NCBI GenBank assembly: GCA_030390025.1
Contig: CM059431.1
Coordinates: 126,048,001 to 126,112,000 of the forward strand
Length of the DNA: 64,000 nt
Direction: 5' to 3'
DNA from: Squalus acanthias
Lineage: Eukaryota
A program made the position numbers and the translations under genes. Under the pieces are notes generated by a model. The model was not told the origin of the DNA. It saw nothing but the letters and a program-made list of their open reading frames with translations, and did not search any database. Positions within the stretch are counted from its first letter, which is position 1. Every line of letters begins with the position of its first letter. This document shows, one piece after another, positions 4,838-51,066 of the stretch.

Positions 4838-7698
4838 TCTTTTTTATTCGTTTATGGGATGTGGGTGTCGCTGGCAAGGCCAGCATTTCTTGCCCATCAC
4901 AAATTGCCCTTGAGATGGTGGTGGTGAGCCGCCGTCTTGAACCGCTGTAGTCCATGTGGTGAAGGTACTCCCACAGTGCTGTTAGGTAGGGAGTTCCAGG
5001 ATTTTGACCCAGCGACAATGAAGGATCGGCAATATATTTCTAAGTCAGGATGGTGTGTGACTTGGAGGGGAACTTGGAGGTGGTGGTGTTCCCATGCGCC
5101 TGCTGCCTTTGTCCTTCTAGGTGGATGAGATCGCGGGTTTGGGAGGTGCTGCCGAAGAAGCCTTGGCGAGTTGCTGCAGTGCATCTTGTAGACGGTACAC
5201 ACTGCAGCCATGGTGGTGGAGGGAGTGAATGTTTAAGGTGGTGGATGGGGTGCCAATCAAGCAGGCTGCTTTGTCCTAGATGGTGTCGAGCTTCTTGAGT
5301 GTTGTTGGAGCTGCACTCCTCCAGGCAAGTGGAGAGTATTCCATCACACTCATTACTTGTGCCTTGTAGATGGTGGAAAGGTTTCGGGGAGTCAGGAGGT
5401 GAGACGCTCATCGCAGAATACCTAGTGGCTGATCTGCTCTTGTTGCCACAGTATTTATGTGGCTGGTCCAGTTAAGTTTCTGATTGATGGTGACCCCCGG
5501 GATGTTAATGTTGGGGGATTCGGCTATGGTAATGCCGTTGAATGTCAAGGGGACATGGTTAGACTCTCGCTTGTTGGAGATAGTCATTGCCTGGCACATC
5601 TGTGGTGCGAATGTTATCTGCCACTTATCAGCCCAAGTCTGAACGTCGTCCAGGTCTTGTTGCATGCAGAACTTGGAGTAGGCTGATATGGATCATCCAC
5701 TCGGCACTTCTGGCTGAAGATGGTTGCAAATAATTCAGCCTTTTCTTTTGCACTAACATGCTGGGCTCCACCATCATTGAGGATGGGGATATTCATGGAG
5801 CCTCCTCCTCCTGTTAGTTGTTTAATGGTCCACCACCATTCACGACTGGATGTGGCAGGACTGCAGAGCTTTGATCTGATCCGTTGATTGTGAGATGGCT
5901 TTGCCCTGTCTATAGCATGCTGCTTCTGCTTTTTAGCATGCATGTAGTCCTGTGTTGCAGCTTCCCCAGATTGGCACCTCATTTTTAGGTACGCCTGCTG
6001 CTGCTGCTCCTGGCATGCTCTTCTACACTTCTTATTGAACCAGGGTTGATCCCCTGGCTTGATGGTAATGGTAAAGTGAGGAATATGCTGGGCCATGAGG
6101 TTACAGGTTGTGGTGGAATACAATTCTGCTGCTGCTGATGGCCCACAGTGCCTCATGGATGCCCAGTTTTGAGCTGCCAGATCTGTTCTGAATCTATCCC
6201 ATTTAGCACGGTGGTAGAGCCACACAACACAATGGAGGGTGTCCTCAGTGTGAAGACGTGACTTCGTCTCCACAATGACTGTGCAGTGGTCACTGCTACC
6301 AGCACTGTCATGGACAGATGCATCTGCGACAGGTAGATTGGTGAGGACGAGGTCAAGTAGGTTTTTCCCTCGTGTTGGCTCTCTCACCACCTGTCGCAGG
6401 CCCAGACTGGCAGTTATGTCCTTCAGGACTCGGCCAGCCCGGTCAGTAGTGGTGCTACCGAGCCACTCTTGGTGATGGACATTGAAGTCCCCCATCCAGA
6501 GTACCTTCTGTGCCCTTGCTACTCTCAGTGCTTCTTCCAAGTGGTGTTCAACATGGAGGAGTACTGATTCATCAGCTGAGGCAGGCGTTAGGTTGTAATC
6601 AGCAGGAGGTTTCCTTGCCCATGCTTGACCTGAAGCCATGAGACTTCATGGGGTCTGGAGTCAATGTTGAGGATTCCCAGGGCCACTCCTTCCCGACTGT
6701 ATACCTGGTGGGACGGGACATACCCAGGGATGGTGATGGAGGAGTTTGGGACATTGCCTGAAAGGTATGATTCTGTGAGTATGACTATGTTAGGCTGTTG
6801 CTTGACTGGTCTATGATTCAGCTCTCCCAATTTTGGCACAAGTCCCCAGATGTTGGCGAGGAGGACTTTGCAGGGTTGACTGGACTGGGTGTGCCATTGT
6901 CGTGTCCGTAGCCGGTGCCGAGGTCGATGCTGGGTCGTCCGTCCGGTTTCATTCTTATTATTGTGTTTTGTAACAGTTTGTTACAACTGAGTGACTTGCC
7001 AGGCCATTTCAGAGGGCAGTTAAGAGTGAACCACATTGCTGGGGGTCTGGAGTCACATATAGGCCAGACCAGGTCAGCATGGCAGATTTCCTTCCCTAAA
7101 GAACATTAGTGAACCAGATGGGTTTTTACGTCAATCCGATAGTTTCATGGTTACCATTACTGATCCAGGGACTTGAGCACATAAAGCTAGGCTGACACTC
7201 CGGTGCAGTGCTGATGGAGTCCTGCACTGTCGGAGGTGCCGTCTTTCGGATGAGACGTTAAACTGCACTCTCAGGTGGATGTAAAAAGATCCCATGGCAC
7301 TATGTCGAAGAAGAGCAGGGGAGTTATCCCCGGTTTCCTGGCCAATATTTATCCCTCAACCAACATAACAAAAACAGATTATCTGGTCATTATCACTTTG
7401 CTGTTTGTGGGACCATACTCTGCGCAAATTGGCTGCCGCGTTTCCCACATTACAACAGTGACTCCACTTCTAAAAGTACTTCATTGGCTGTGAAGCGCTT
7501 TGAGACGTCCAGTGGTCGTGAAAGGCACTATATAAATGCAAGTCTTTCTTTTCTTTTAATAATTATTCCAGATTTATTTAATTAACTGAATTTAAATTTC
7601 CCAGCTGCCGTGGTGGGATTTGAACTCACATCTCTGGATCATTAGTCCAGGCCTCTGGATTACTAGCCCAGTGACATTATCACTACATTACTGTTCCC
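4838..7698 (-). mobile_element. APE-type non-LTR retrotransposon (CR1/L2 superclade; exact clade uncertain) with tRNA-like 5' head, RT core deleted, SINE inserted
   Basis: Endonuclease motifs IVILTESYL, MGDFNVHH, LLDLVLTN, SDHC (5614-6839) join directly at ~5680 to post-RT sequence QQDLDDVQTWADKWQITF; A-rich tail ~4838-4850; paralogous to 62275-64000. Confidence 0.85.
7164..7556 (+). mobile_element. DeuSINE (SacSINE1/AmnSINE1-like), 5'-truncated, inserted in the LINE 5' region
   Basis: GGAGGTGCCGTCTTTCGGATGAGACGTTAAAC..GTAAAAGATCCCATGGCACTA Deu-domain-like core and ..CTATATAAATGCAAGTCTTTC tail. Confidence 0.85.
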
Positions 7699-24385: not shown

Positions 24386-25149
24386 GGGACAGAAATTAGG
24401 CTCGCCACGGGTGAGTATGTACTGTGTACTCACCCGTGGACAGAACGAAAGTGCCGGTTTCTTGCATGCATTGCGCATGCGCGGGAAACCGGCACTTCCA
24501 TTCCCCTGAGGAAAGGGGTTCAGAGGTCGAACGCACACGCCGGAGGGCCAGCGCGTTCGCCTCGCACTTCGGGTTTTTTTTACAGGTTCCTCCGTGAGGG
24601 TAAGCACGGAGAAGATACACTTTTAAAAAGGATGCGCAAGGCCTTTTTTTAACAAGGTAAGTGTTGATTTATTAAAATTTAAACATTTTTTTCACAGATT
24701 TATCTTTTTTAATTACTTTAAAGAAAGGTAAGTTTAGTTTTAATCCCGTTAAAAAGTGTAATTAATTTTTTCAAAAATTTAAATTTTAGTTTAAAATAGT
24801 TAATTACTGTAATATAGTTATTTTAAAAATATGTGATTTTTTTAAAAAATTTATTTGTAGTTTTAGGGATGTTTTGGGGCCGATCTGTATTCATAGATTT
24901 GACAGATCTTCCTGTAAATCTATGAATGAAAGATGGTCTGCTGCCATTGGCTCTCCATGGCCCACGTGATCCCAGGGGATGCATCGCACTAACTACGCCC
25001 CTGGGATATGCAAGCACTGCGCGCCGGCAGCTGTAGGAGGCCCAGGACCCGAATTCCTCGTGGGCCCAGGGGTCAACGGCAGGCGCGGTAGGTAGGTGCC
25101 CGCGCGATCCTTGCACCCGCGGGAAGCCAGGGAGCCGAATTTCTGGCCC
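24386..25149 (+). mobile_element. Harbinger-type MITE, family A (complete)
   Basis: TIRs GGGACAGAAATTAGGCTC / GAGCCGAATTTCTGGCCC; homologous to 1-650 and 38908-39635. Confidence 0.8.
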
Positions 25150-26353
25150 AATAATTGAACACTGAGAATTAAGAGTTGACATGACAGAAATCAACTCATT
25201 CTGCTTGACAATTTGTTTAAGAACCTAAAAAGGAAGATACTACAGATGCTGGTAACTCAAAATAGAACAGAAAATGTTGTCAGAACTCTGGGTGTTGCTG
25301 AGTTATTTCAGCATTTTCTCTTTTTCTTTGTTCAGAAATCCAATATTCTGGAGGAAGAAGCACCAGAGAGAAACAGTTATAACCGAGATTGTAGTAAGCC
25401 AGAGAGCTAAATAATACAAAGCATTAAACCAGTACTGGTAACTAACTCGGCTGACAACTCCTCCGCCTTCTAGATAACTTGATGTAGTCAGTCACAGTGA
25501 CTTACAAAGCTTTATGTAGGTCTCAGCTCCTGTTCTCATTATTCATATTTATGTTTCTCACATCTCCAAAGCATGACATTTAAAAAGTAATTTACAGACT
25601 GTTATACTAGGGAAGAAAAGGTTAATTGTATAGTTTTGTATTTTCTTTTAAATTGATTGTTCTTTGGTTCCTAAATTGTATTGTACAAGCCTACTGCAGC
25701 AGTTGGGTCATTTTTACAAACATGACAAATTCAGGTATGATTTTTTATTCTCATCAATTTTCTCTGGAGTTTCCCTCCCTTCCCTTCCTTTTCTGAATAT
25801 ATTAACTTCCTGCTGGGGTCGATTAGAGGGCACTGGCAGCCCTCTAGCACCTTGCCCAAGTAACCATTGTTCACCTCTGAGCCATGACAGTGAGGGCTGC
25901 AAAGCTATTGCAAGACTATTCATCTGTGAGACCGAGCTAAATCTATCTTCAGCTGACATCCACATACATGTGGTTTCAGCAGAGAATGTTTGATTGCAAA
26001 CAGGAGCAAAAACAGGATTGCTGAGGCCAATTAAAACAACACTACTGCCAACCCAGCTAAGATTAACTAACTCGCCACAGACTGTGGTTCAAACCTGAGA
26101 CCATCTCGGTCTACATGGTTGAGCCACTCGTTGGCTAGACTTGGCAAACAGCCTGAACCGTAGGTTTCTAGAAAGAACAGGGAACTTCAAATATAGAAAC
26201 TCTCAGATTTTTATAACATTGATACAACTAGGGGTTGTAGAATTCGCAATTATCGCGATTTCATTTTAATAAGGAGAAAACACAAGTTTCGTTCAAAACA
26301 GCTTTTATTTCAACGGAATGCTGTCAGGTTTAAATTGGACACAAGCAGCCTGT

Positions 26354-26834
26354 AAAATGGCCGCCGCACCGCGTGACAGAACATTCGAGACTTTTCGGCA
26401 GGCAGACAAGATGGCGTTCCAATAAACATTTTTGCAGGATCGATAACGATTCAGCACAGTGAAGACAATACACAGGACATTATGGGTTTACAGTATAAAC
26501 ATCGATACTGGGATCGGTCTCCCAGGTACAAAGGAAAGCCATCAAGGGCCCATCCAAAGGACATTAATATGTAAACTCCCAACGGCTCTACGATGAGAGA
26601 GCCGTTAGCAGGTAGTTATACAGGACACTTGGAAGCCCCAAACCCCTCCAGGGGGAACACCGACCGATTTGACAATGGGAGAAATATTAACAGGTACTCA
26701 AACATTCAGGAGTAGCCCCGAAACCCATTAAGGACAGAGATCACCCATACAGGACATTTTTTTGGGCGCCAAACCTTAAACAAAAGAATGGACATTGTAG
26801 TTGGGCGGGAAACGGAAGAACTGTGCACTATAAT
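26354..26834 (+). promoter_or_regulatory. Candidate LTR U3 promoter/enhancer
   Basis: YY1-like AAAATGGCCGCC (26354) and CAAGATGGCG (26407), CCAAT 26419, TATAAA 26494, GC box 26803, TATAAT 26829, recurring AGGACA motif. Confidence 0.5.
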
Positions 26835-27013
26835 TGCAGGCCCAAACCGTCCATTCGCTCTCTTGCCTCGTGTTCGTGACTCTTGCCGCTTGCTGCTGTT
26901 ATCATCGTGGCTGCTCCTGTGTTTTATCCGGTCGATTCGTAACCTCGTGGCTGCTCCTGGGTAAAAGACTGTTGCAAAGACCTATGTTGGTAGCTGGCAG
27001 CGGAACCAAAGGC

Positions 27014-27068
27014 CCGAGATGAGATGAGATGAGATGAGATGAGAGGAGATGAGAGGAGAAGAGAAGAA
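27014..27068 (+). repeat. (GAGAT)n/purine microsatellite inside the LTR (also at ~38020-38074)
   Basis: GAGATGAGATGAGATGAGATGAGATGAGAGGAGATGAGAGGAGAAGAGAAG. Confidence 0.9.
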
Positions 27069-27868
27069 GACCTTATCCATCGCCACGGTCAGTAAATCCC
27101 GACCGCGCCTGTAGGTCGATCAGCCAAGTCTTCTCGACAGGAAGTTTTCTTCTTTAACAAGACATATTGCATCGACGATAACTGGACTGTGCAAACACAT
27201 CGTATCAGCGATATTGACAACGGTGCTCCACCATACCCTGTATCCAACCAACAGAGGTCTTCACTACAGCGGACGGTCCAGCCGACTGACCGAGCAGCAG
27301 AAGCAGTAAACAAGTGGGACCAGGAGATCTCCTGACCAACACGTGGGTGCTGCGGTGAAAAACATCCGATCAGCTATTCGGGATTTTCTCCGAGTTATTA
27401 CGAGTGGTGAGCATGAGTCTCGGGATCCTACGAAGCTAGTTTTAGGATAGTTATTGATAGGGGAGGGTTGAAGTTTAAGGATATTTGTAATGTGTGCCCT
27501 ATTTACGTTGTGCTGGTCGTTCCTCGTTTCCCTAAGAGTGATTATAACTGGTTGTAAGATTGTACTGTCATTAATCTGTGCATATGACATGTATTTCATA
27601 ATTTTAAGTATCATGCAATAAAGATTTTCCATTTCGTACCGTTCAAACCAAGTCTACATGAGTTTTATCTCCATTACTGCTCTCGCATCTAAGTCCAGTG
27701 TCTAGAACCGTAAGGGAGAGTGATTCGAACCACTCACAGGGGTGTCTAGTGTTCCCAGACTGGCTGGAGACCAGGCCTAGACCCGCACTGACATACAGGC
27801 TGCACAGAGCCGCGTGAACCTCACAGGCCACGAGACACGCAGGGTCAGGAGAGTATCCCTTACAGAAA

Positions 27869-29680
27869 ATGGCGACCGCGGCAGGACACTGGCAGCGAGA
27901 GGGTAGTGTGTTAGATTTTGGAATGACTGTACGAAATGTGATGCAGGAAAAGATAGCGGATTACGTATTTGGAAAGGTTAATCTAACGAAAAAGTGGATA
28001 AGCGAACTGTTAGCGGATAAGAGCCCACTAGAGGCAGCTGAAAGGTGGACGGATAGTAAGGAGCATAAAAAGGCAGTTGAGAAAGCAGTCTGGCTTATGT
28101 GCTACAAAAGGCAGGTTCAGATTTCAAACCAGACCAATACAGCGCTAACCGCTCGAATCAAGCATCTAGAGGAGGAAATGGAGGAGAAGGTTTCTGGAGG
28201 GGAGGTGCTCATTAAGAGTTTAAATGAGTTACGCCAGGAAAGCCAGGAAGTCTCCAGTTACCTTAAAACAAGGGTAGAGTATCTCGAGTGCCAGATCACT
28301 GAAGCAAAATTAAACGAGAGTAGGATGAAGGAAAGATGTAACCGTCAAGCTGCCCAGATAAGAACTCAAGAAGAGAGCTTAATGGGGGTTAGGTCGGCGT
28401 ATAAGTTGGCCCTTGAGGATAAGTTTCAGGGAGCCGACCATAGCGCCTGCGAAAAAGAGATAGAGAGCCTCAAAAAGGCCGTGAATAATGCGAACGGCAT
28501 GGTGTGCCTTATTAATCCGTCGGCACGCCAGCCGCTAGTAAATGAGAGATTTAGAAATTCCCCACCAAGTAAAGCAGAAGAAGTAGTAGCCACTGCGCCC
28601 TCCGCGCCACCCAGCTATTCAGAAACCTGGGTTAGGGAGGAAGCAACGGAAGAAGCGAAAGAGCCCGTTGAAAAAGAGGTAGAAAAGGGATCGTTGTATC
28701 CAGTAACGGGGATTAAAAGGGGCCCAAGCAGAAACGGTGGGGAAGAACCGGGGGATCTCCTCGGACAGCTGGTGTTGCCTCACAGTTCACATCAGCTGAG
28801 GGCTATGATAAACCACGTAAGGAAGCTGACCGAGATAGACGACCCTTCCGTACATTTTAGGGAAGTTGAGCAAGCCGCAGCCATCAACGGCTGCGATGAT
28901 GGGGAGACAGCAAAAATGCTGCTGTTCTCTTTAGATAGCTCGGTCCTTCAGTGTCTCTCAGGCGATAGCAAGAGGGGTAATAAAAGTTATGAGGAATTGA
29001 AAAATGAGGTCCTAGAAGTAGTGGGAGCGAACGACGGAGGTCCGTTTGCTAGAGTGGGACAGACAGTGCAGATGGAGGGAGAACCCCCGAAGGTTTTTGC
29101 CGACAGGCTGTGGCCAGTATATGAGCGCAGCTGTCTAGGTGCGCCCGAGCGCGAAGATGTGGAAGGCGCCGCTTTAATTCATTGGCTTAGGTGCATAATA
29201 GCCAACAGTTTACCAGCCGTTAGAGAGCAGGCAAAAGCCTGGTTCGATCCCAATGACCTCAACCTTACGGAAGAGTCGGTCTTGAATCGACTCACGTTAG
29301 GTTACCGTAACATAAGGGGTATGGCAACACGTCCCTTTAAGGGAAGAGTACATGAGGTACGACCCGCAGCCCCGGCTCAAAGAGAGTGGCATCAGGAGGG
29401 TAATCGCGCCCCACAGGCAAGTAATGCCTGTTACGGGTGTGGGAAGACAGGGCACTGGCGCAAGCACTGCAGGAACCCTTGGAAGGATTCCAAGGATAAA
29501 AATCCCGCGGTCCGAACCCAGGCGCCTGTCCCGGCTAAGGAAGCAAAGGCACCCACCTCTCCCGAAGACCTCGAGGCAGTGTTAGGAGTCATGCGCAAGA
29601 TGGTTTTGAATGCGCGTGGACAGGTGGCGGTCGCAACCGGCCCCGTAGGTGCCGCAGGACCGTCTAATAGTGCCCCATGA
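27869..29680 (+). CDS. gag: Gag polyprotein (603 aa): coiled-coil N-terminal region, PSAPPSY late domain, probable capsid, single CCHC knuckle
   Basis: Position after LTR/PBS; CYGCGKTGHWRKHC (29429-29470). The true start could be a downstream Met. Confidence 0.92.
   Translation: MATAAGHWQREGSVLDFGMTVRNVMQEKIADYVFGKVNLTKKWISELLADKSPLEAAERWTDSKEHKKAVEKAVWLMCYKRQVQISNQTNTALTARIKHLEEEMEEKVSGGEVLIKSLNELRQESQEVSSYLKTRVEYLECQITEAKLNESRMKERCNRQAAQIRTQEESLMGVRSAYKLALEDKFQGADHSACEKEIESLKKAVNNANGMVCLINPSARQPLVNERFRNSPPSKAEEVVATAPSAPPSYSETWVREEATEEAKEPVEKEVEKGSLYPVTGIKRGPSRNGGEEPGDLLGQLVLPHSSHQLRAMINHVRKLTEIDDPSVHFREVEQAAAINGCDDGETAKMLLFSLDSSVLQCLSGDSKRGNKSYEELKNEVLEVVGANDGGPFARVGQTVQMEGEPPKVFADRLWPVYERSCLGAPEREDVEGAALIHWLRCIIANSLPAVREQAKAWFDPNDLNLTEESVLNRLTLGYRNIRGMATRPFKGRVHEVRPAAPAQREWHQEGNRAPQASNACYGCGKTGHWRKHCRNPWKDSKDKNPAVRTQAPVPAKEAKAPTSPEDLEAVLGVMRKMVLNARGQVAVATGPVGAAGPSNSAP
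27870..27887 (+). other. Primer-binding site, tRNA-Arg(TCG)
   Basis: TGGCGACCGCGGCAGGAC is complementary to ..GTCCTGCCGCGGTCG-CCA, the vertebrate tRNA-Arg(TCG) 3' end as I recall it; lies 5 nt (GAAAA) after the LTR. Confidence 0.85.
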
Positions 29681-32600
29681 CTAGAACCAGCACAGCCCGT
29701 CTACCTGTGTCCGCTCAGCTATGATGCGTGGAGGCGACCTGTGGTGGAGATGGAGGTAGAGAAACAAAAGGGCAGTTATTTGTTGGACACGGGAGCTTCT
29801 TGCACCATAATCCATACAGATGACCCTTTTGACTCGCCGCTATCTACCAAGGTCCCATTCACGCTAGCAGGGTTCACAGGGAAAGAACAGGCTGGCACGT
29901 TTTCCCTCCCGCTATCCATTCGTTTAGGGACACTTCGCCTTAAGTGGAAGTGTATGCTAATGGCATGGCAAAAGGGGGGTGGAAGAGGTATTCTCGGGTC
30001 CGATCTGCTAGCGGGACACGGGATCCTCGTGGACCTCAGAAATCACTGTCTCTGGGGGGCTAAAGGGGAAAAAGGCGAGGTAATGGTAATTCAAGGGGAG
30101 GAAGAAACAGGGGTCCTGTGTACCGTACAGCCATCCGGAGGCTACGACCTCAGGCTTATGGTCGCAGATGTCCCAACGGACATGCAAACGTACGTGACAG
30201 ATAATATGCACGCGTTTGCAACCCACAAGCACGATTGTGGGAGGGTGGTCGGGTTTGAGGTCAGCGTAGATGGGGACCCCATGACCCGACCCCAAAAGCA
30301 GTATAACTTCCCCAAAGAAGCAGAACCCGATATGGAGGCAGCAATGTCTTCCTTGGTGCAGCAGGGCGTGTTGAGGCCGATAGCCACACACGTGAACTCC
30401 CCATTATGGCCGGTTAGGAAGCCGGATAATTCGTGGAGAGCCACGGTGGACTACAGAGTCCTTAACAGTAACATCCCCGCCTGCGCGCCCACAGTAGCAG
30501 CAGTTGCTGACCTAATAGGGAGCATCCCAGCGTCCGCGACCACGTTCACGGTGCTGGATATCTCGAACGGTTTTTGGTCCATCCCGCTGCGGCGAGAGGA
30601 CCAGTACAAGTTTGCCTTTACGTTTAAAGGGCAACAGTACACGTGGAACTGCTTGCCACAAGGTTTCCACAATAGCCCCAGTATTTTTCACCAGTGTATG
30701 GCAGGAAGTTTAAAGGAGTTTAGTCAGCCCAATCAGATAGTACAGTATGTGGATGATTTGCTCCTATTTACGGACTCAAGGGAGGAGCACGGACCACTGC
30801 TGGACGAGTTATTGGAGCTGTTAGCGAGAAAGGGTTTTAAAGTAAACCCAAAGAAAGCACGTATCGGTCAGCAGGAAGTAAAATTCCTGGGACTGACCCT
30901 ACGCGCTGGGGAAAGAGCCATAGACAAAGCAAGGAGGGAGTCGGTACAAGAATTACCGATTCCCAACAACGTAAGGGGTGTGAGGTCCTTCTTGGGACTG
31001 ACCGGTTACTGCAGGGATTTTATCGAGGATTATGCGGCCACAGCGGCGCCGCTCCTCCGACTCCTCCATAAGGGAGTAGAGTGGCTTTGGGACGAGGGCT
31101 GCCAAGCAGCCTTCGAGAAGTTAAAAAGGGATCTGCAGACCGCGCCAGCCTTAGGGGCCATAGATGGGGGGAAGGAGTTTTTCCTGGAGGTAGCTGCCAG
31201 CGGAGACAGCTTAAGCGCCGTGCTGCTCCAAGAGCGTCACGGCAAGCTAAGGCCGGTTGTCTATTCATCCAGGGTATTAACGGATGTGGAGAGAAGTTTT
31301 TCCAATTGCGAAAGGCACCTTTTAGCCACGCATTGGGCTGTGAAAAGATCAGCGATCTTCACAGGGCTCTCTCCCATCACTCTCCTCACACATCACACAC
31401 CAACTAAGATGCTTCTGGATGGGAGGATTAAAGACGGGACCGTAAGCAGCGCACGCATTGCGCGTTGGACCCTTCTTCTCTCCCAGTTGGACATCAGAGT
31501 AAAAGGTCTTTGCGAGCCCAGGCTTGCGGCCAATTTGGTATACCCCGGTACAGCCCACCGGTGTTCGGTGGAGGGGGTGTGGGACGTCAACATAGGTTTA
31601 CGGGCCGGGATACATCCCACTGGGCGCGAGATTTATGTTGATGGGTCTAGCACAGTATCTGCTGGCGAGCGACTCACAGGGTGTGGAGTTTATGACCCTG
31701 CGGCAGACCTTGCCCTGGCGATCAAGCTCCCTAGCACCATGAGCGCGCAGCAGGCTGAGCTGTCTGCCGTGGTGTACGTGGTAACCCACCCAGACATTTT
31801 CCCAACCCCATACACGATTTGCTCGGACAGTATGTTCACCTGCAATTCGTGTACGGAATACCTGGCCATTTGGTCCCGCCGTGGATACACCTCCGCGGAC
31901 GGGCGACCTTTAACGGTAAAGCCCTTGCTGGAGAAGATCTTAGCAGCAGCAGTAGGGGAGGAAGGGGAGATTTTCATCCATAAGGTGAAAGCTCACTCCT
32001 CCACAGAGCCCCGTGGGGAGGGCAACCGGCAGGCGGATGCGCTAGCCAGGGAGGGTGCCCGCGACGGTACTTTCTGGAACCCCTATAGAACCGGACCCAT
32101 AGCAGCGGTCCGAGGTGGGGACGGGAATACCGGGAACACCAGGGTAGCATTGCCCCTAGACCTCAAGACCGTCCAAGCCCAGGATCCCGCCCTAAAAGCA
32201 GTCCTAAAAACGATTGCTGAGGGGAGGCAGGTAGAAGGTCCGTACAGTACGGCAACCCTCTCAGTTAAGGAAGGCATGCTGTTCCGCGAGGAGCAGTGGG
32301 TTGTGCCGCAGCAGCACAGGAGGGAATTCCTCCAGTTGGCTCACGAGGGACCAGGGGCAGGGCACCCCGGGCCCGAGGTTACCTGGCAACGGGTAGAGCA
32401 AGCGGGATGGTGGCCAGGGCTCAGGGAACAAGTCCGCGAGTTCTGTGCAAACTGTCTTGTGTGCGCTGCAAACAACCCAGACCCCCAGAAAAGGAAGGTG
32501 CCCATGGGACACGTAAGAAGGGTAGAGGGACCATGGCAGTCGATACAGATCGACTATATAGGACCCCTGCCCACCACCCAGGGAGGTTATAAGTACTGCC

Positions 32601-34183
32601 TCGTCCTGGTGGATGTGTTTTCCAAGTGGGTGGAAGCCTTCCCTTGTCGAACAGCTACGGCACTGGGTACAGCAAAAATCTTGGTCCGGGAAGTGTTCTC
32701 GCGGTGGGGACTCCCCCGTTTCGTGGAGTCAGACCAAGGGAGTCATTTCACCGGCCAGGTGATGCAGAACACCCTCATGCTTTTGGGCATTGAAGGGAAG
32801 TGGCACGTAGCACACAATCCCCAGTCATCCGGGATTGTTGAACGTATGAACCGGACCCTGAAGGAGAAATTGAGGAAAGAGACTAGGAACTCGCCCCAAA
32901 AGTGGGCGGAAGTTCTGCCTTTAGTCCTCATGGGGGTCCGGGCCAGTCAGTCAAAAAGTACGGGGTACTCCCCGCACGAGGTAATGACCGGCAGGCTCAT
33001 GCGAACCCCCACCCATGTGCTAGCCCCGGTGCTCACTGAGGGTCAGCTTCAAGAGATCAGCAGGGACAAGTTCGCCCAAACTCTCTTGGAGCGCCTGAAG
33101 CAAGTTTATGAGCAGGCGGCTGGGAACATGGGAAGGCAGCACCAGGGCAATCGCTTGTTGCTGGAACCCCGCAAAACGCGGGAGTGGGAAGTAGGAGACC
33201 AGGTCATGGTCAGAAACTACGCCAGAGTAGGGAGTCTGGAACCACTGTATATGGGACCCTACAACATTGTAGACAAGGCGAGTCCCATGGTTTACGCCGT
33301 AAAAGTACCTCGGCGCACTAAGTGGTTCCACATAAACCAATGTAAACTGTACCAGCCGGGTGCGCAAGGGAAAACTACAGGGGTAAATCCCGCCAATGGG
33401 AAAACACAGCCCCAGGTAGGACCACAAGGCACACAGGCAGGCGTAGCAGCTTGCATCAGGGGAAGGGACATCCCGGACGATCATGCAGCGTTTTTCTGGA
33501 GTTGGGGGTTAGATGACGAGGACCCCAGGGTACCCTGGTCAGATGAGGATAGTGCAGATGAGCATAGTGATGATGACGGGTGGTTTCAGAGGAACGGTCT
33601 GGAAGGATTGGGGCCGCTAGGTAGAGATCCATACGGGGTGGACACACAAGCTGCAGGTCCCGACAGCAGGAGGAAGGAGCTAGAGGAGGCCGGACCAGCC
33701 GCTATGTGGTTCCCAGAGGTGTGGCCGCCCGCTTTGAACGTCCAGTCCTCAGGGGAGGCAGAGTTCGCGAGTGAAGGGCCGCCTGCTGGGCCGAGCAGGG
33801 CGGGGCCCCGAACTGCCAGCCCCGAGGTTAGGGAGGCGGAGTCAGCGGAGGCGGGGCTGGCGCCTGTGATGGAACCCCAGGTCATCCCGTTGAAGGTCTC
33901 GGGACCCGGTCCGTCCGTCACGGAGCCCCCGCCCATAGCAATTCCCCGTAGGTCAAGCAGAGTACCCCAGCCCAGGAAGACGTGGTCAGGTCCACAGGCT
34001 GCCCCAGGGCGTAAGTTTCAGGTTAAGATAACCCGGGTAGAGACAGGCCACATCGAAGCAGTAACAGGCTGCGGCAGATCAGAGGAAAGGGTCAGCGCAG
34101 CAACAGGCTGCGGCAGATCAGAGGGAAGGGTCAGTGCCCTCCCACCGTCGGGAAGAGCTCGCAGCAGCCTTCTCAGGATTTAA
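29681..34183 (+). CDS. pol: Pol polyprotein: PR-RT-tether-RNase H-IN plus C-terminal extension; in-frame with gag
   Basis: LLDTGAS (PR); LPQGFHNSP and YVDD (RT); YVDGS..AQQAEL..SDS..GNRQAD (RNase H); HHCC and D,D(35)E; GPY motif. Frame is open from 29681. Confidence 0.96.
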   Translation, partial: LEPAQPVYLCPLSYDAWRRPVVEMEVEKQKGSYLLDTGASCTIIHTDDPFDSPLSTKVPFTLAGFTGKEQAGTFSLPLSIRLGTLRLKWKCMLMAWQKGGGRGILGSDLLAGHGILVDLRNHCLWGAKGEKGEVMVIQGEEETGVLCTVQPSGGYDLRLMVADVPTDMQTYVTDNMHAFATHKHDCGRVVGFEVSVDGDPMTRPQKQYNFPKEAEPDMEAAMSSLVQQGVLRPIATHVNSPLWPVRKPDNSWRATVDYRVLNSNIPACAPTVAAVADLIGSIPASATTFTVLDISNGFWSIPLRREDQYKFAFTFKGQQYTWNCLPQGFHNSPSIFHQCMAGSLKEFSQPNQIVQYVDDLLLFTDSREEHGPLLDELLELLARKGFKVNPKKARIGQQEVKFLGLTLRAGERAIDKARRESVQELPIPNNVRGVRSFLGLTGYCRDFIEDYAATAAPLLRLLHKGVEWLWDEGCQAAFEKLKRDLQTAPALGAIDGGKEFFLEVAASGDSLSAVLLQERHGKLRPVVYSSRVLTDVERSFSNCERHLLATHWAVKRSAIFTGLSPITLLTHHTPTKMLLDGRIKDGTVSSARIARWTLLLSQLDIRVKGLCEPRLAANLVYPGTAHRCSVEGVWDVNIGLRAGIHPTGREIYVDGSSTVSAGERLTGCGVYDPAADLALAIKLPSTMSAQQAELSAVVYVVTHPDIFPTPYTICSDSMFTCNSCTEYLAIWSRRGYTSADGRPLTVKPLLEKILAAAVGEEGEIFIHKVKAHSSTEPRGEGNRQADALAREGARDGTFWNPYRTGPIAAVRGGDGNTGNTRVALPLDLKTVQAQDPALKAVLKTIAEGRQVEGPYSTATLSVKEGMLFREEQWVVPQQHRREFLQLAHEGPGAGHPGPEVTWQRVEQAGWWPGLREQVREFCANCLVCAANNPDPQKRKVPMGHVRRVEGPWQSIQIDYIGPLPTTQGGYKYCLVLVDVFSKWVEAFPCRTATALGTAKILVREVFSRWGLPRFVESDQGSHFTGQVMQNTLMLLGIEGKWHVAHNPQSSGIVERMNRTLKEKLRKETRNSPQKWAEVLPLVLMGVRASQSKSTGYSPHEVMTGRLMRTPTHVLAPVLTEGQLQEISRDKFAQTLLERLKQVYEQAAGNMGRQHQGNRLLLEPRKTREWEVGDQVMVRNYARVGSLEPLYMGPYNIVDKASPMVYAVKVPRRTKWFHINQCKLYQPGAQGKTTGVNPANGKTQPQVGPQGTQAGVAACIRGRDIPDDHAAFFWSWGLDDEDPRVPWSDEDSADEHSDDDGWFQRNGLEGLGPLGRDPYGVDTQAAGPDSRRKELEEAGPAAMWFPEVWPPALNVQSSGEAEFASEGPPAGPSRAGPRTASPEVREAESAEAGLAPVMEPQVIPLKVSGPGPSVTEPPPIAIPRRSSRVPQPRKTWSGPQAAPGRKFQVKITRVETGHIEAVTGCGRSEERVSAATGCGRSEGRVSALPPSGRARSSLLRI

Positions 34184-34466
34184 AGGGGCCGCCCTGAGAA
34201 CGGGCGGCATTGTAAAGTTATTAGTTTAAGGTTTTAAGTTTTAGTTTAAAGTTTTAAGTAGTTTTAATAAGTTTAAGTTTGTAGTGTTTTTAACAGATAA
34301 CGACAAATGATGGGAGTTTTAAGGCTAGGTTTAGAGGAAGTCTATTTAGCAAACGTTGAAGTTTACGTGAGGCGAGGTCAGGGGACCCGCTCACCCGTCA
34401 CAAAAGCCAGAGACTTTTTGCGAGGCTGGCTACCTCATTCTATCTGATCACAGGAACCAAGGAAGG

Positions 34467-36818
34467 ATGGAACGACTTCTAGTTTTGCTCGTGGCAATCG
34501 GATGTGGATTGGCCTATCGGGGCCTCACCAAGGATGTCGTGGTGTTTGGATGTTCCGGGGACACGGCCCCCATCGCGGTGGATGGGACCGGAAGACGGAA
34601 GGCAGAAGGGACCAGCACCTATTTCCACAAGGGAAGGTGGCCAGGATGGCTGGGAACGAACTCAACGGAGTATTCCAGCACATCGGGGTTCGCCTACAAA
34701 GAGACTTCTTTAATGTGCCCCAAAGTACGGATCATCGCACCCAGGATCAGCGTCACCGTCGGCAAACGGATTTGTTTGACTTGCAGTGGGAATGTCCCAT
34801 TGAGCCGATGGTGGTGGCTGCGAAAGCTGAGCAAAACTATGAGGAACTCTTCGGTTGAGTGGGAGCGACTGGGTAATAATACCCATCGGACAATTACGGG
34901 GACAGATGGACAAGTGAAAGTCTGTTGGGACAAATGGTGGGAACCAGATGAGGGGATTTATGTTTGTATGTGGGGGTCAAAGTACGTTTGCCCCAAAGGC
35001 ATCTCCATATTCTTTATTAACCAGTGGCAGGATAACGGACAGGGGATGAGGTGGGATGCGAGCACCAGGGGGTGCGGAGCCCCATACTCTCCGATCCCAG
35101 TAAATGCCACTGAGCTCATTACGCGCCCACGCAAAGCCCCGCCCACGATTCCGGTAGTTCTAACTGAAGAGGAAGGGTGCCCTAAAACTAGTAAGGGACC
35201 CGGGAACGGTTTGGTACTGGTCCCCACAGACCAGATACTATTTCAGGGGGTACATTACGCGGTGGCCTCGGTGATTTTAAATCTCACTGAGGTACGGTTA
35301 CCAGAGTGGTGCCCCAAAAAGACGGAACAGTTGTACCAGGTCCTGTTGACCAAGATGTTCAGGCAATTTTACGAGTTTGATTTTGCAGAAATCGATAAGA
35401 CAAGTTTATACACCGCACCGCAGGAAGTTTTGGACCAAGTAGGGAGGCAAAGAAGGGGTTTGGTGAACGATGCGTTCACTGCTTTTAACACAGGGACATC
35501 TGTGGTCAACGCTCTAGACAGTGTGGAGCTGCAGACCCAGATTAATGGTTTAAAAACACAGTTAAAGGATATTCTTACAGATGAGAATAAAGTGGTAGGG
35601 TCGGGTCTGCACGAGGACCAAGCCATGACACTACACTTAAAAGAGATTATAGCAGAGCTGGAGAAACATGCGCGTACGGTAAATGCCCTGATCAGGGAAG
35701 ATCGGAATGCATCCGATCAGGCTGCGCAGAACGAGGTGTGCGTGCTTTACGGGGCGTGGTTACTGGGCGAGGGCCGCAGTAATTTGGAGGATTTAAAACA
35801 AGGTTTGGTCCCGTCCTGGATAAGTAACAAACACCTGCGGGCGCTCCACCCTTTTCAGAATGCATTAAGTCCGTGCCAGCTCAGGCTAGCTTCAGAAGCT
35901 TACCCAGTCCCCGTGGACTGCGGACGTTCAAACCATACTATTATGGGAATAGTATTACGCATGCCGGTTTTGGGCAACACAGCAAAGCCCGCCCCGGTGT
36001 ATCGGGTAGAGAACATTGGTGTCATTCAGGGGGGAGCCCACATTCGTTATGCAGCGGTTCCACCTTACGTCATCCGCTGGGAGCAAACGATGACAGGTAC
36101 AGATCTCTCTGGTTGTCGTGGCAGGGGAGCACACATAATACTGTGCCCCCAGCACTTGAATGCCTTTTTAACACCACAGTGCGGGTTCAGAACGGCTGGC
36201 GCCAAGTCCATGAATTGCACCATGGAGGCAATGGCACAAGATCATGTGCCTCCGCAGGTAGCATACATCGGGGGTGGAACATATTGTGTTACCACTGCAG
36301 CGCAACACTACCAGCATGGAAACCGTAGCCGGTGTCCGGTGAGTGACAGCAGTTTCTGTTTTAAACCCAGGGCTGAAGTTCAAGTAGCACAACAGCGAAT
36401 TATCCCAATCCCTGAACCATCCACTGTTCATCTCACAGTAAAAGAGAATTTTACCGACTTGCAGCGATTTGTCGCACATTTTGGGTACCTCATTCCCCCT
36501 CTCCCCGAGCATTTAACCAAACTTCTGAAAGCCGTCGCGGTGTCACAAAAGCATTTTTATACCTTAGAGCAGAAAACTGTCGAGATAGGTACAGACATTT
36601 TGGACATAGTGGTTCCACCGTGGTGGAATCTGTTCACGAATATTGAAGTGCCCTCATGGGTCAGAATAGCCTCCCACATTTTAGTCGTCTGTCAAGTGTT
36701 TATTGTAGTATACCTTTTGTTCATACATTGTAAAAGAGACAAGCGCCTCACCAAGCATGAGAACACGGGAGAGTGGCGAGAACGTTACGTGCGCGTGCAC
36801 GATGAGAGCGCAGTGTAA
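34467..36818 (+). CDS. env: Envelope glycoprotein (783 aa), F-type class I fusion protein with N-terminal Ig-like domain
   Basis: Signal peptide, RQRR furin site (35445-35456), fusion peptide and heptad repeats, Cys-rich region, C-terminal TM (~36657-36731), multiple N-x-S/T sequons. Confidence 0.9.
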   Translation: MERLLVLLVAIGCGLAYRGLTKDVVVFGCSGDTAPIAVDGTGRRKAEGTSTYFHKGRWPGWLGTNSTEYSSTSGFAYKETSLMCPKVRIIAPRISVTVGKRICLTCSGNVPLSRWWWLRKLSKTMRNSSVEWERLGNNTHRTITGTDGQVKVCWDKWWEPDEGIYVCMWGSKYVCPKGISIFFINQWQDNGQGMRWDASTRGCGAPYSPIPVNATELITRPRKAPPTIPVVLTEEEGCPKTSKGPGNGLVLVPTDQILFQGVHYAVASVILNLTEVRLPEWCPKKTEQLYQVLLTKMFRQFYEFDFAEIDKTSLYTAPQEVLDQVGRQRRGLVNDAFTAFNTGTSVVNALDSVELQTQINGLKTQLKDILTDENKVVGSGLHEDQAMTLHLKEIIAELEKHARTVNALIREDRNASDQAAQNEVCVLYGAWLLGEGRSNLEDLKQGLVPSWISNKHLRALHPFQNALSPCQLRLASEAYPVPVDCGRSNHTIMGIVLRMPVLGNTAKPAPVYRVENIGVIQGGAHIRYAAVPPYVIRWEQTMTGTDLSGCRGRGAHIILCPQHLNAFLTPQCGFRTAGAKSMNCTMEAMAQDHVPPQVAYIGGGTYCVTTAAQHYQHGNRSRCPVSDSSFCFKPRAEVQVAQQRIIPIPEPSTVHLTVKENFTDLQRFVAHFGYLIPPLPEHLTKLLKAVAVSQKHFYTLEQKTVEIGTDILDIVVPPWWNLFTNIEVPSWVRIASHILVVCQVFIVVYLLFIHCKRDKRLTKHENTGEWRERYVRVHDESAV

Positions 36819-37230
36819 TGGGAAAATGGCGTCACTCCCGCTCGCCACGTGCGCCGCGGAAGTTTGTACTCAGTGTAAATACGTTGGAAACTCGACATGT
36901 TTAAGAGTTGGGATTTGTTTATTTTGGTGATGGTGTTGATTGTTTGGTTTTTTGGGTTTTGTTTTTCCTTTCCCTGAATAAAAGATAAATGTACAGGTGA
37001 TGCGTGAGGTATCGGCCTGGTTACGCCGGGAAGGAAGACAAGTGGTGTAAGTTTAAGGGCAAATGATGCCTATGGTGATATAAAGTGTGATTTTCTTGGG
37101 AAATAAGGACGACACAGAGACCCTAGTGAAGTTAAAATTTTATGGGATTAATTTACTGGATTCGGAGTGAAATCGAGATAAGATTGCTCACCACTGAGTT
37201 TTTGATACGATAAGCGGAGTTATTCGCATC

Positions 37231-37242
37231 AACAGGAGGGAC
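37231..37242 (+). other. Polypurine tract
   Basis: AACAGGAGGGAC immediately before the 3' LTR TG. Confidence 0.8.
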
Positions 37243-38870
37243 TGTAGAATTCGCAATTATCGCGATTTCATTTTAATAAGGAGAAAACACAAGTTTCGTT
37301 CAAAACAGCTTTTATTTCAACGGAATGCTGTCAGGTTTAAATTGGACACAAGCAGCCTGTAAAATGGCCGCCGCACCGCGTGACAGAACATTCGAGACTT
37401 TTCGGCAGGCAGACAAGATGGCGTTCCAATAAACATTTTTGCAGGATCGATAACGATTCAGCACAGTGAAGACAATACACAGGACATTATGGGTTTACAG
37501 TATAAACATCGATACTGGGATCGGTCTCCCAGGTACAAAGGAAAGCCATCAAGGGCCCATCCAAAGGACATTAATATGTAAACTCCCAACGGCTCTACGA
37601 TGAGAGAGCCGTTAGCAGGTAGTTATACAGGACACTTGGAAGCCCCAAACCCCTCCAGGGGGAACACCGACCGATTTGACAATGGGAGAAATATTAACAG
37701 GTACTCAAACATTCAGGAGTAGCCCCGAAACCCATTAAGGACAGAGATCACCCATACAGGACATTTTTTGGGCGCCAAACCTTAAACAAAAGAATGGACA
37801 TTGTAGTTGGGCGGGAAACGGAAGAACTGTGCACTATAATTGCAGGCCCAAACCGTCCATTCGCTCTCTTGCCTCGTGTTCGTGACTCTTGCCGCTTGCT
37901 GCTGTTATCATCGTGGCTGCTCCTGTGTTTTATCCGGTCGATTCGTAACCTCGTGGCTGCTCCTGGGTAAAAGACTGTTGCAAAGACCTATGTTGGTAGC
38001 TGGCAGCGGAACCAAAGGCCCGAGATGAGATGAGATGAGATGAGATGAGAGGAGATGAGAGGAGAAGAGAAGAAGACCTTATCCATCGCCACGGTCAGTA
38101 AATCCCGACCGCGCCTGTAGGTCGATCAGCCAAGTCTTCTCGACAGGAAGTTTTCTTCTTTAACAAGACATATTGCATCGACGATAACTGGACTGTGCAA
38201 ACACATCGTATCAGCGATATTGACAACGGTGCTCCACCATACCCTGTATCCAACCAACAGAGGTCTTCACTACAGCGGACGGTCCAGCCGACTGACCGAG
38301 CAGCAGAAGCAGTAAACAAGTGGGACCAGGAGATCTCCTGACCAACACGTGGGTGCTGCGGTGAAAAACATCCGATCAGCTATTCGGGATTTTCTCCGAG
38401 TTATTACGAGTGGTGAGCATGAGTCTCGGGATCCTACGAAGCTAGTTTTAGGATAGTTATTGATAGGGGAGGGTTGAAGTTTAAGGATATTTGTAATGTG
38501 TGCCCTATTTACGTTGTGCTGGTCGTTCCTCGTTTCCCTAAGAGTGATTATAACTGGTTGTAAGATTGTACTGTCATTAATCTGTGCATATGACATGTAT
38601 TTCATAATTTTAAGTATCATGCAATAAAGATTTTCCATTTCGTACCGTTCAAACCAAGTCTACATGAGTTTTATCTCCATTACTGCTCTCGCATCTAAGT
38701 CCAGTGTCTAGAACCGTAAGGGAGAGTGATTCGAACCACTCACAGGGGTGTCTAGTGTTCCCAGACTGGCTGGAGACCAGGCCTAGACCCGCACTGACAT
38801 ACAGGCTGCACAGAGCCGCGTGAACCTCACAGGCCACGAGACACGCAGGGTCAGGAGAGTATCCCTTACA
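37243..38870 (+). repeat. 3' LTR (1628 bp)
   Basis: Direct repeat of the 5' LTR, one T fewer in a T-run; followed by TSD GGGT. Confidence 0.97.
38623..38628 (+). terminator. Candidate proviral polyadenylation signal AATAAA (5' LTR equivalent 27617-27622)
   Basis: The only AATAAA I found downstream of the TATA candidates in the LTR; preceded by a U-rich tract. Confidence 0.55.
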
Positions 38871-41349: not shown

Positions 41350-42060
41350 GGCACGTATTTTGCAACCCCTACGGGTGCGTACGAGGTGTGTACGCGAGTT
41401 CCGGGTTTAGGCATGCAAAGCACATGCACTGAAACCCGGCACTTGCGATCTGTCAAGAATCCTCTTGGCAGATCCTCCGCATCCCCGGGAGACGGGCCTC
41501 TGCGGGTGGAGAGCTGTGCTATTTGCACAACTTCCGCCCGCTGAATGCCTGTCAAATTCTTACGCCTGGTAAAAGCCTTACGCCTGCTTTTACCAGCATA
41601 AGTGTTTAAAAAAATAGAAAAATAAAATTATCAGTCATTTATAAATTAAAAGTACTCTTCAATAAGGTAAGTTTATTTTTAGCACTGTAAGAACATATAA
41701 TTTTATTTCTTCAAAAAATTAAATTTTTGTTTAAAATATTTAATTAAATGGCATTTTAATTCATTTTAAATATTTAATATTTTTTAAATTTATTTCATGT
41801 GTGTGTGTTTTTTAAGTGATCCCCATTCATACTTACAGGAGTTCCGTACGTACGGAACTCCAATAAGTATGAATGGGGATCCCCTTCTTTTATTGGTTGG
41901 GCCGGCCCATGTGATCCCAGGGGCGCCTACGAACCGCCTGCGCCCCTGGGATATGTGGGCCTCTGCCTGCGCGTATCCAGAGAGGCCCAGGATCTCAAGC
42001 CTCTGTATCTCTTGGGCCACCAGGTACATTCGTAGATTTTTTGCAGGTCGGAGGTTGAAT
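41350..42060 (+). mobile_element. MITE related to family A, with a long internal palindrome
   Basis: Shares GAAACCCGGCACTT, AAGGTAAGTTTATTTTTAGCACTGT and GTGATCCCAGGGG blocks with family A. Confidence 0.65.
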
Positions 42061-47513: not shown

Positions 47514-50500
47514 TAGTGGCTAAGAGCAATAGTGGTAGGGGATTCAATAGTGAGGGGAGCAGACAGGCGTTTCTGCGGCCACAGACGTGACTCCAGGATG
47601 GTATGTTGCCTCCCTGGTGCCAGGGTCAAGGATGTCACTGAACGGCAGCAGCGCATTCTGGGGGGAGAGGGTGAACAGCCAGATATCGTGGTCCATATCG
47701 GTACCAATGACATAGGTAGAAAGAGGGATGAGGTCCTGCAGGCAGAATTTAGGGAGCTAGGAGTCAGATTAAAAAACAGGACCTCAAAGGTAGTAATCTC
47801 CGGATTACTCCCGGTGCCACGTGCTAGTGAGTCCAGAAATAGGAGGATAGAGCAGATGAATGCGTGGCTGGAAGGATGGTAGAGAGAGGGAGGGCTTCAG
47901 ATTCCTGAGGCATGGGGACCATTTCTGGGGGAGGTGGGACCTGTACAAGCTGGACGGGTTGCACCTCAACAGAGCTGGGACCATAATACTCATGGGCGGG
48001 GTGGGGGTTGCTAGTGCTGTTGGGGAGGGTTTAAACTAGCTTGGCAGGGGGATGGGAACCGAAGAGTAGAGTCAGTAGGGAGGGAAGAAAAACTGGAATT
48101 GGAAAACAAAAACGTAGAAAGTAAATTGGAAGGACAGAGGAATCAAGGGCTAGATAGTAGTCAACAAGGAGGTTTGCCTGTACTAAATGGTATATACTTC
48201 AATGCAAGGAGTATAGCGAACAAGGCAGATGAGCTGAGGGCACATGTAGATACTCGGGACTATGATATTATAGCTATTACAGAGACGTGGCTGAAAGAGG
48301 GGCAGGTATGGCAGCTCAACATTCCTGGTTACAGGATTTTCAGACGGGATAGAGAGGGATGTATAAAGGGAGGGGGGGGTTTGCGGTATTGATTAAAGAA
48401 ACTGTGAGGAGGGATGATATGTTGGAGGGATCATCAAACAAGGCCATATGGGTTGAATTGAAAAACAAAAATGGGGCGATCACACTGCTGGGAGTGTACT
48501 ACAGACCCCCAAACAATGAGAGGGAGATAGAAGAGCAAATATGTAGACAAATCTCTGAGAAGTACAAAAACTATAGGGCAGTAATAGTAGGGGATTTCAA
48601 CTACCCCAATATTAACTGGGATAAAATTAGTGTGAAGGGGATAGAGGGTGCGGAATTCCTAAAATGCATCCAGGAGAACTTTTTTAACCAGTATGTAGCA
48701 AACCCAACAAGGGAGGGGGTGGTTCTGGACTTAGTTTTAGGGAATGAAGCTGGGCAGGTAGAAGCCATATCAGTGGAGGAGTATTTTGGTGCTAGTGACC
48801 ATAATTCAGTTAGATTTAAGGTAGTTATGGAAAAGGACAAGGATAGACCAGGAGTAAAAATTCTAAATTGGGGAAAAGCAAATTTTGCTAAGCTCAGTGG
48901 GGATTTAGCCATAGTGGACTGGAAACAGCTACTTGAAGGTAAATCAGTGTCAGAGCAATGGGAGGCATTCAAGGAGTAGATCTGGAGGGTTCAGACTAAA
49001 TATCTGTCCTTAAAGAAGAAAGGTGGGACTAACAAATCTAGAGCCCCCTGGATGTCTAGGGACATACAGGGTAGGATAAAGAAAAAAAGGGAGGCGTATG
49101 ACAGATACCGAGGGCTAAATACTGCAGAATTTTCAGAGGAGTACAGAAAGTGCAGGGGTGCAATTAAAAAGGATATTAGGAAAGCAAAGAGAGAGCATGA
49201 AAAATTCTTGGCACGTAAAATCAAGGAAAACCCAAAGATGTTTTATAAATATATTAAGAGTAAGAGGATAACTAAAGAAAGGGTAGGGCCTATTAGAGAT
49301 CATGAGGGTAATCTGTGTGTGGAGGCAGGAGACACCGGTAGGGTTCTTAATGAATACTTTGCGTCTGTTTTCACAAAGGAGAGGGGCGAAGCAGACATTG
49401 CTATCAGGGAGGAGGAATGTGAAATATTAGATGAAATAAACATAGTGAGAGAGGAAGTAATAAGGGGTTTAGCAGCTTTAAAAGTGGATAAATCCCCAGG
49501 CCCGGATGAAATGTATCCCAGGCTGTTAAGCAAAGCAAAAGAGGAAATAGTGGAGGCCCTGACCATCATTTTCAATCCTCTCTGGCTTCAGGTGTGGTGC
49601 TGGAGGACTGAAGGACTGCTAATGTGCTACCCTTGTTTAAAAAGGGAGAAAAGGATAGACCGAGTAATTACAGGCCAGTCAGCCTAACCTCGGTGGTGGG
49701 AAAATTATTGGAAAGAATTCTGAAGGACAGGATAAATCTTCATTTAGAAAGACACGAATTAATCAAGGATAGTCAGCACAGATTTGTTAAGGGAAGGTCG
49801 TGTCTGACAAACTTCATTGAATTTTTTGAGGAGGTAACAAGGAGGGTAGATGAGGGTAGTGCGTTTGATGTAGTGTATATGGACTTTAGCAAGGCTTTTG
49901 ATAAGGTTCCACATGGCAGACTGGTCACGAAGTTAAAAGCCCATGGGATCCAGGGCAAAGTGTCAAGTTGGATTCAAAACTGGCTCGGAGGCAGGAAGCA
50001 GAGGGTAATGGTTGATGGGTGTTTTTGTGACTGGAAGGCTGTTTCCAGTGGGGTTCTGCAGGGCTCAGTACTAGGTCCCTTGCTTTTTGTGGTATATATC
50101 AATGATCTAGACTTGAATATAGGGGGTATGATTAAGAAGTTTGCAGATGATACTAAAATCGGCTGTGTGGTTGATACTGAAGAAGGAAGTTGTAGACTGC
50201 AGGAAGATATCAATAAATTGGTCAAGTGGGCAGAACAGTGGCAAATGGAATTCAATCTGGAGAAGTGTGAGTTAATGCATTTGGGGAGGGCTAACAAGGA
50301 AAGGGAATACACATTAAATGGTAGGGCACTGAGTAGTGTAGAGGAACAAAGGGACCTTGGAGTGCATGTCAACAGATCCCTGAAGGTAGCAGGCCAGGTA
50401 GATAAGGTGGTTAAGAAGGCATATGGAATGCTTGCCTTTATTAGCCATGGCATAGAATACAAGAGCAGTGGGGCTATGCTTCAACTGTATAAAACACTAG

Positions 50501-51066
50501 TTAGGCCTCAGCTAGAGTACTGCGTGCAGTTCTGGTCACCATATTACAGGAAAGATGTGATTGCACTAGAGAGGGTACAGAGGAGATTTACAAGGATGTT
50601 GCCGGGAGTAGAGAATCTTAACTATGAGGAAAGACTGGATAGGCTGGGTTTGTTTTCCTTGGAACAGAGGAGGCTGAGGGGAGAACTTATTGAGGTGTAT
50701 AAAATTATGAGGGGCCTAGATAAAGTGGATAGAAAAGGACCTACTTCCCTTAGCAGAGGGGTCAAAAACCAGGGGACATAGATTTAAATGAATTGGTGGA
50801 AGGTTTAGAGGGGATTTGAGGAGAAATGTTTTCACCCAGAGGGTTGTGGGGGTCCGGAACTCACTGCCTGAAAGGGTGGTAGAGGCAGAAACCCTAACCA
50901 CATTTAAAAAGTACTTGGATGTGCACTTGGGATGCTGTAACCTGCAGGGCTACGGACCAAGAGCTGGGAAGTGGGATTAGGCTGGATAGTTCTTTGTTGG
51001 CTGGCGCGGACATGATGGGCCGAAATGGCCTCCTTCCGTGCCGTAACTTTCTATGATTCTATGATT
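47514..51066 (+). mobile_element. Younger CR1 LINE, 5'-truncated in ORF1; ORF2 with a few stops and frameshifts
   Basis: VGDSIVRG..VHIGTND (SGNH esterase); YFNARS, ITETW, GDFN, SDH (APE); DFSKAFD, QGSVLGP, FADD (RT); CTATGATTCTATGATT tail. Confidence 0.93.

Follow-up and report, generated by a model that had tools for sequence, protein, structure and literature searches.

The 64,000-nucleotide stretch of Squalus acanthias DNA analysed here (assembly GCA_030390025.1, contig CM059431.1, positions 126,048,001 to 126,112,000 of the forward strand; hereafter the window) contains an endogenous retrovirus (ERV), the shark provirus, whose gag and pol lie in one frame, with a single UGA stop codon followed by CUAG between them. 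The sequence makes it very probable that the Gag-Pol protein of this provirus is produced by programmed stop-codon readthrough, the explanation best supported because no slippery site lies nearby, the protease starts before the first ATG of pol and the stop is retained in relatives. Gag would be translated from unspliced genomic RNA, with most ribosomes terminating at the UGA (29678) and releasing Gag. To judge by other UGA-CUAG sites, a few per cent would decode the UGA by a near-cognate tRNA, inserting a residue, and continue through the protease, the reverse transcriptase (RT), the RNase H and the integrase to yield Gag-Pol. The CUAG after the UGA would weaken termination, perhaps helped by a hairpin predicted 6 nucleotides downstream, and readthrough would set the Gag:Gag-Pol ratio, like the UAG and pseudoknot of gammaretroviruses.

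The letters of the junction agree with the preliminary description of this DNA: gag ends with TGA, followed by CTAG and an open in-frame run into the protease. The frame behind the stop starts with LEPAQPVYLCPLSYDAWRRPVVEMEV and remains open for 1,500 codons, to a TAA at 34181-34183. The pol start called in that description, a GTG at 29741, lies 1,872 nucleotides from the gag ATG and in its frame, and the first in-frame ATG of pol is found at 29750, 69 nucleotides past the stop. Depending on the choice of start, Gag comprises 579-603 residues and a Gag-Pol would comprise about 2,080-2,104, close to the proposed ~2,100 residues. Between 29400 and 30000 several stops close each of the remaining two frames, and XXXYYYZ heptamers occur within 29300-29900 at 29333 and 29824 only. 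A -1 frameshift is rejected, as gag and pol already share a frame and a slippery heptamer is absent between 29334 and 29823. That the protease starts ahead of the first ATG of pol follows from its match to Pfam RVP, which reaches 26.0 bits (profile positions 2-96) with the 23 post-stop residues and falls to 17.6 bits (profile 11-97), under the cut-off of 20.7, when counted from the first Met of pol.

In a type II readthrough signal UGA is followed by CUA or CGG and the downstream frame has no adequate start of its own; the junction of the shark provirus possesses both features, with CUA behind the UGA. A stimulatory stem-loop on the 3' side is a conditional feature where the sequence is UGACUA. 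CTAG stands directly behind 3 of the 1,170 TGA triplets in the window. UGA-CUA is given as a type II signal in the available part of a 2026 review. For UGACUAG in human genes, readthrough of at least about 1.3% is on record in literature available in part, and among 765 variants at +1 to +4 (256 contexts, three human genes; source likewise available in part) CUAG is beaten by CUAA alone, in one gene.

The TGA looks inherited and not a lesion, because flanking sites vary in related contigs while the listed differences leave the stop unchanged, and because Gag relatives end there. Of the 24 runs listed, 20 carry at least half of the gag-pol sequence words (12 studies, 8 organism labels), and contigs of four runs (four organism labels, four studies) were compared with the provirus over 29250-30150 at 80% likeness. 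None of the 40 differences listed of 148 falls in 29678-29684, whereas positions 29672, 29676, 29689 and 29692 are variable in each of the four runs; a contig extending over 29642-29766 differs at 29716 alone. The loose ends of contigs (22 listed of 32) include four before 29676/77, one per run, and six behind 29710/12. In more distant family members the match is a short island that opens at the stop, their Gag tails upstream being different; the stop letters of these different-tail contigs are deduced from the start of the match (29676/77) and not printed. Three skate Gags and three from ENA finish no more than one or two residues away from the Gag end of the provirus, and a further relative (P0085) ends at the same place. 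These seven are 35-52% identical to the provirus Gag, the best named relative being from skate (51%); a 334-residue skate member has another end. Conservation of TGACTAG, named in the preliminary description as a check, holds among close relatives, in which neither the listed contig differences nor the Gag ends reveal a sense codon. A weak search among longer proteins found no fused Gag-Pol, and a protease motif accompanies 2 of 149 new profile matches, both matching through the zinc knuckle only.

The same signal is present in other retroviruses. In the PMC7947760 supplement, of which 300 of 318 pages were covered and in which line breaks may hide matches, the lokiretroviruses Loki-Ofa, -Cne, -Pyo and -Sau possess TGA-CTAG at the gag end, an in-frame protease motif following some 60 codons later (by eye; gag end of Loki-Cne placed by analogy). 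Of the 17 TGACTAG matches there, these 4 lie at a gag end; that of Loki-Lch is out of frame and is taken as chance. Loki-Bsp has TGA-CTAA at the same junction place, by eye, with a slip of frame further on. Among the 24 published lokiretrovirus sequences, ten are annotated with a single gag-pol open reading frame (ORF), five possess the signal, one (Loki-Ape) lacks the junction in its published sequence and eight, with a separate pol, lie outside the junction comparison. Two ERV-L-like proviruses of the African bullfrog, relatives of XtERV-S described in the available part of PMC8278194 as old defective copies, show TGA-CTAG in one case and TGA-CTAA in the other at the equivalent position (by eye), and XtERV-S itself has TGA-CAG, both according to the part of the supplement covered.

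The UAG-only contrast drawn in the preliminary description for retroviral readthrough is too sharp. UGA likewise separates in-frame gag and pol in SSSV (UGAAGA), ZFERV (UGACGA), RMEV (UGAAGU) and XtERV-S, which belong to epsilon-related or ERV-L-related lineages; suppression is presumed in them, but none has CUA after the stop. The available part of the 2026 review, source of the first three of these junctions, gives UAG-G for gammaretroviruses and for SnRV (UAGGGC), reports retroviral junction experiments for gammaretroviruses only and mentions UGACUAG in six passages that all concern human genes. Suppression is already presumed for SnRV and, in the parts available of the XtERV-S and OVEX1 papers, for these two, the OVEX1 stop being UAG. 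Readthrough thus stands as the best-supported reading, but the route itself is less unusual than first proposed; what stands out is the CUAG context, rather than the UGA or readthrough as such. Other type II sites (the alphavirus nsP3/nsP4 opal codon, PSIV, human AQP4, MDH1, LDHB and OPRL1) also combine in-frame UGA-CUA(G) with a predicted stem-loop a few bases 3', whereas the signal of the shark provirus, known from sequence alone, sits at a retroviral gag-pol junction. The stop of the gammaretrovirus MoMLV has the same purpose and place, between the zinc knuckle and the protease DTG, but consists of UAG-G with an 8-nucleotide spacer and a pseudoknot (type III), in contrast to UGA-CUAG with a simple predicted hairpin.

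The terms "readthrough" and "stop codon" do not appear in the main text of PMC7947760, nor in those of PMC9040795 and PMC4422223, and CUAG, CUA and opal are absent from PMC8278194. No report of a retroviral UGA-CUAG was found in the literature searched, a scope that leaves outside most subscription journals, Repbase-type annotations and bioRxiv supplements, and a type II UGA-CUA(G) signal at a retroviral gag-pol junction looks new. We lean towards regarding UGA-CUA(G/A) as a recurrent, unremarked Gag-Pol route in aquatic retroviruses, arrived at independently of one another in at least three lineages (the SnRV-like ERVs in cartilaginous fish, a subclade of the teleost lokiretroviruses and ERV-L-like frog proviruses) whose sisters rely on UAG-G, a different UGA context or an uninterrupted ORF.

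The hairpin behind the stop is plausible as a stimulator of readthrough but statistically unsupported. Its predicted pair probabilities mostly exceed 0.95, and three variants are found near it, one kept as a G-U pair, one pair-breaking and one in the loop; an Rfam search over the junction hairpin gives no match. The 3' structure named as a check in the preliminary description is present as a prediction, yet not exceptional by z score or shuffling. The strongest folding window of gag-pol lies elsewhere, inside the RT (30829-30908, z -7.3, 40 shuffles).

Several findings weigh against readthrough. The z score of the hairpin is only -1.1 to -2.1, with 50 of 156 gag-pol windows lower; shuffled sequences fold as well in 15 of 500 cases for the tight window and in 49 of 500 for 80 nucleotides; and one of the predicted pairs is disrupted by a variant that is common at 29689. 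The listed contig comparisons leave outside 108 of the 148 differences and 10 of the 32 loose ends. In a coelacanth RefSeq gene model (P0008, Pol 45% identical), Gag-like sequence continues into Pol without a stop, with a QG dipeptide at the place where SnRV has UAG-G; this model may represent either a copy with a sense codon or an artefact of gene prediction. The UGA-CUA signal is not universal in lokiretroviruses, because ten of the 24 are annotated as one gag-pol ORF. Finally, an acceptor-like AG at 29718 sits 32 nucleotides upstream of the ATG at 29750, whose context is good.

This last site could serve a Pol translated from a spliced RNA, either in the manner of foamy viruses from its own ATG behind the acceptor or through an in-frame splice at the AG of TGACTAG, which would place the stop inside an intron. 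With 15 pyrimidines of 20, the AG at 29718 is the 7th best acceptor in the provirus interior, equal to the env acceptor candidate at 34453; the ATG has G at -3 and +4, and the long terminal repeat (LTR) holds donor-like sites at 27407, 27554 and 27710. A start at this Met, the 24th residue behind the stop, would however lose the first protease strand, the Met is not retained in coelacanth P0008 or in P0010/P0012, and the YAG at 29718 is absent from divergent relatives, to judge by the loose ends of contigs. For the AG at 29684 the pyrimidine tract is poor (11 of 20), and its equivalent is AA in Loki-Bsp and in one bullfrog provirus, where UGA-CUA is kept without an acceptor. Splicing is thus improbable in our estimation; no splice joint is listed within 29250-30150 in the four runs, but none of the 24 runs is on record as RNA, two of the four are only presumed to be, and the lack of a joint was given no weight.

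Termination at the UGA with re-initiation, or internal initiation, at the same ATG gains from its context and its position 69 nucleotides past the stop, but would yield a truncated protease and a Pol untethered to Gag, from a Met not conserved in relatives, and would leave the conserved CUA unexplained; we give it a very slight chance. Just as slight is the chance that a nonsense mutation of a formerly continuous gag-pol ORF gave rise to the TGA, which was then copied in one family spreading with the help of other copies. The ten single-ORF lokiretroviruses, in the part of PMC7947760 covered, and the possibly continuous P0008 speak for such an origin. Against it, of the 802 ways in which a single-base change creates a stop within the gag-pol frame, just one yields TGA-CTAG and 27 lie in the region from zinc knuckle to protease; Gag relatives with 35-52% identity share the end position, contigs whose Gag tails are unrelated retain the stop, and the remainder of the provirus is unbroken.

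The provirus belongs to the Retroviridae-like ERVs, and its RT domain (211 bits to MLV, 196 to foamy virus, 145 to Ty3) is closer to MLV and foamy viruses than to Ty3. It lacks the combination of UAG junction and class I RT of gamma- and epsilonretroviruses. It also differs from the foamy type, with pol in a separate frame under its own ATG and a Gag without knuckles, in its common frame, its CCHC knuckle and a protease that begins before the ATG. Foamy viruses express pol from a spliced RNA. The shark provirus is likely SnRV-like, according to RT motifs and identity compared by eye and not to a tree: over the first 132 residues of the RT, 69 are identical to those of SnRV without gaps, and scaffold 2 of CmiERV (elephant shark), grouped with SnRV in the available part of Han 2015, has THKHDCG, PACAP and LDISNGFWSIPL in common with it. 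SnRV-like ERVs (clade Huo; CmiERV lineage I) likewise possess a stop that divides gag from pol within a single frame, and one zinc knuckle. The primer-binding site (PBS), which we take to be tRNA-Arg-like, and the coiled-coil Gag presumably also agree with SnRV; the PBS of CmiERV differs. The junctions read UAG-GGC in SnRV, in-frame UGA-CAU in CmiERV scaffold 2 (by eye) and UGA-CUAG in the shark provirus, which is further distinguished from both by its 1.63-kb LTR, a gag ATG at the PBS and a long Pol tail. A quick RT tree of 61 rows, with neither an SnRV nor a Loki row, places the provirus outside a 41-row gamma/epsilon-like clade, among frog, coelacanth and other relatives without resolution.

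A lokiretrovirus identity, considered from Env, was dropped: in the covered part of the PMC7947760 supplement NGFWS occurs nine times, only in SnRV, ZFERV-2 and CoEFV, and KHDCG does not occur. Lokiretroviruses (Wang and Han 2021, PMC7947760, as far as available) share dual RNase H and coiled-coil Gag with the shark provirus, and their Env, like the F protein of Mononegavirales and with RXXR, may correspond to its Env, but their RT, protease and Gag tail are unlike those of the provirus. The Atlas features of Env reach 0.94-0.95 to the Gypsy env, Baculo_F and Fusion_gly clusters. Env has no Pfam match, its best match to PDB sequences (E=1) is a weak Ig-like N-terminal part, and a single-sequence fold (pLDDT 34.6) was not used. 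The Env of CmiERV is gamma-type by eye, on a motif that we take to be diagnostic, whereas that of the shark provirus seems to resemble F-type fusion proteins, which suggests an envelope swap.

The provirus is very young, because its two LTRs differ only by one T in a T run (1 of 1,629 positions); the GGGT on both sides is the target-site duplication, and gag, pol and env are open apart from the gag-terminal stop (Table 1). The LTR is very long and possesses TATAA at 26829 and AATAAA at 27617 (5' copy), positions that imply an R region of ~0.75 kb, inside which lies a (GAGAT)n array (27016-27064). As the gag ATG, which is in good context, overlaps the PBS, no leader is left between LTR and gag, and because of this overlap the true start may instead be 27923 or 27941. 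The skate and ENA Gag relatives are likewise called from a MAT start, letters that the PBS itself dictates. The Pol tail (~33370-34183), downstream of the integrase SH3, is acidic and Pro-rich and includes a 39-nucleotide tandem repeat (34058-34134); frog and coelacanth relatives end directly after SH3, without a long tail. The flanks contain broken long interspersed nuclear element pieces (endonuclease-RT) at 48353-50781 and 5614-6645, and short repeats are located at 103-644, 24610-25146 and 41645-41733 of the window. No related locus was confirmed from 5 pattern matches in viral contigs or from 299 in metagenomes.

Table 1. Features of the shark provirus, in positions of the window.
Feature	Position	Strand	Remarks
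Provirus	26236-38870	+	5' LTR, gag, pro-pol, env, 3' LTR
5' LTR	26236-27864	+	1,629 nucleotides, TG...CA ends; GGGT before it
Primer-binding site	27870-27887	+	sequence read; overlaps first gag ATG
gag ORF	27869-29680	+	603 residues; coiled-coil region, capsid-like region, one CCHC knuckle, TGA end
TGA-CTAG	29678-29684	+	stop codon and type II readthrough context
Predicted stem-loop	29687-29747	+	61 nucleotides, starts 6 nucleotides after stop; candidate stimulator
pro-pol frame	29681-34183	+	1,500 codons: protease, RT, tether, RNase H, integrase, SH3-like, ~270-residue low-complexity tail
env ORF	34467-36818	+	ATG 34467; signal peptide-like start, RQRR furin-type site, F-type-fusion-like region, transmembrane segment
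3' LTR	37243-38870	+	1,628 nucleotides; GGGT after it

Retroviral classification uses the mode of pol expression, and according to the available part of the 2026 review only the gammaretroviral UAG-pseudoknot signal is experimentally verified. A retroviral signal of type II brings together two classes of readthrough so far treated as separate, and its natural variants (CUAG, CUAA, CAG, CAU) are comparable with the human deep-mutagenesis data. For annotation, screens that drop elements with internal stops, or call pol from the first ATG, misread such young ERVs. If the signal is indeed recurrent, the signal for gag-pol recoding would be a readily exchanged module and not a fixed genus trait.

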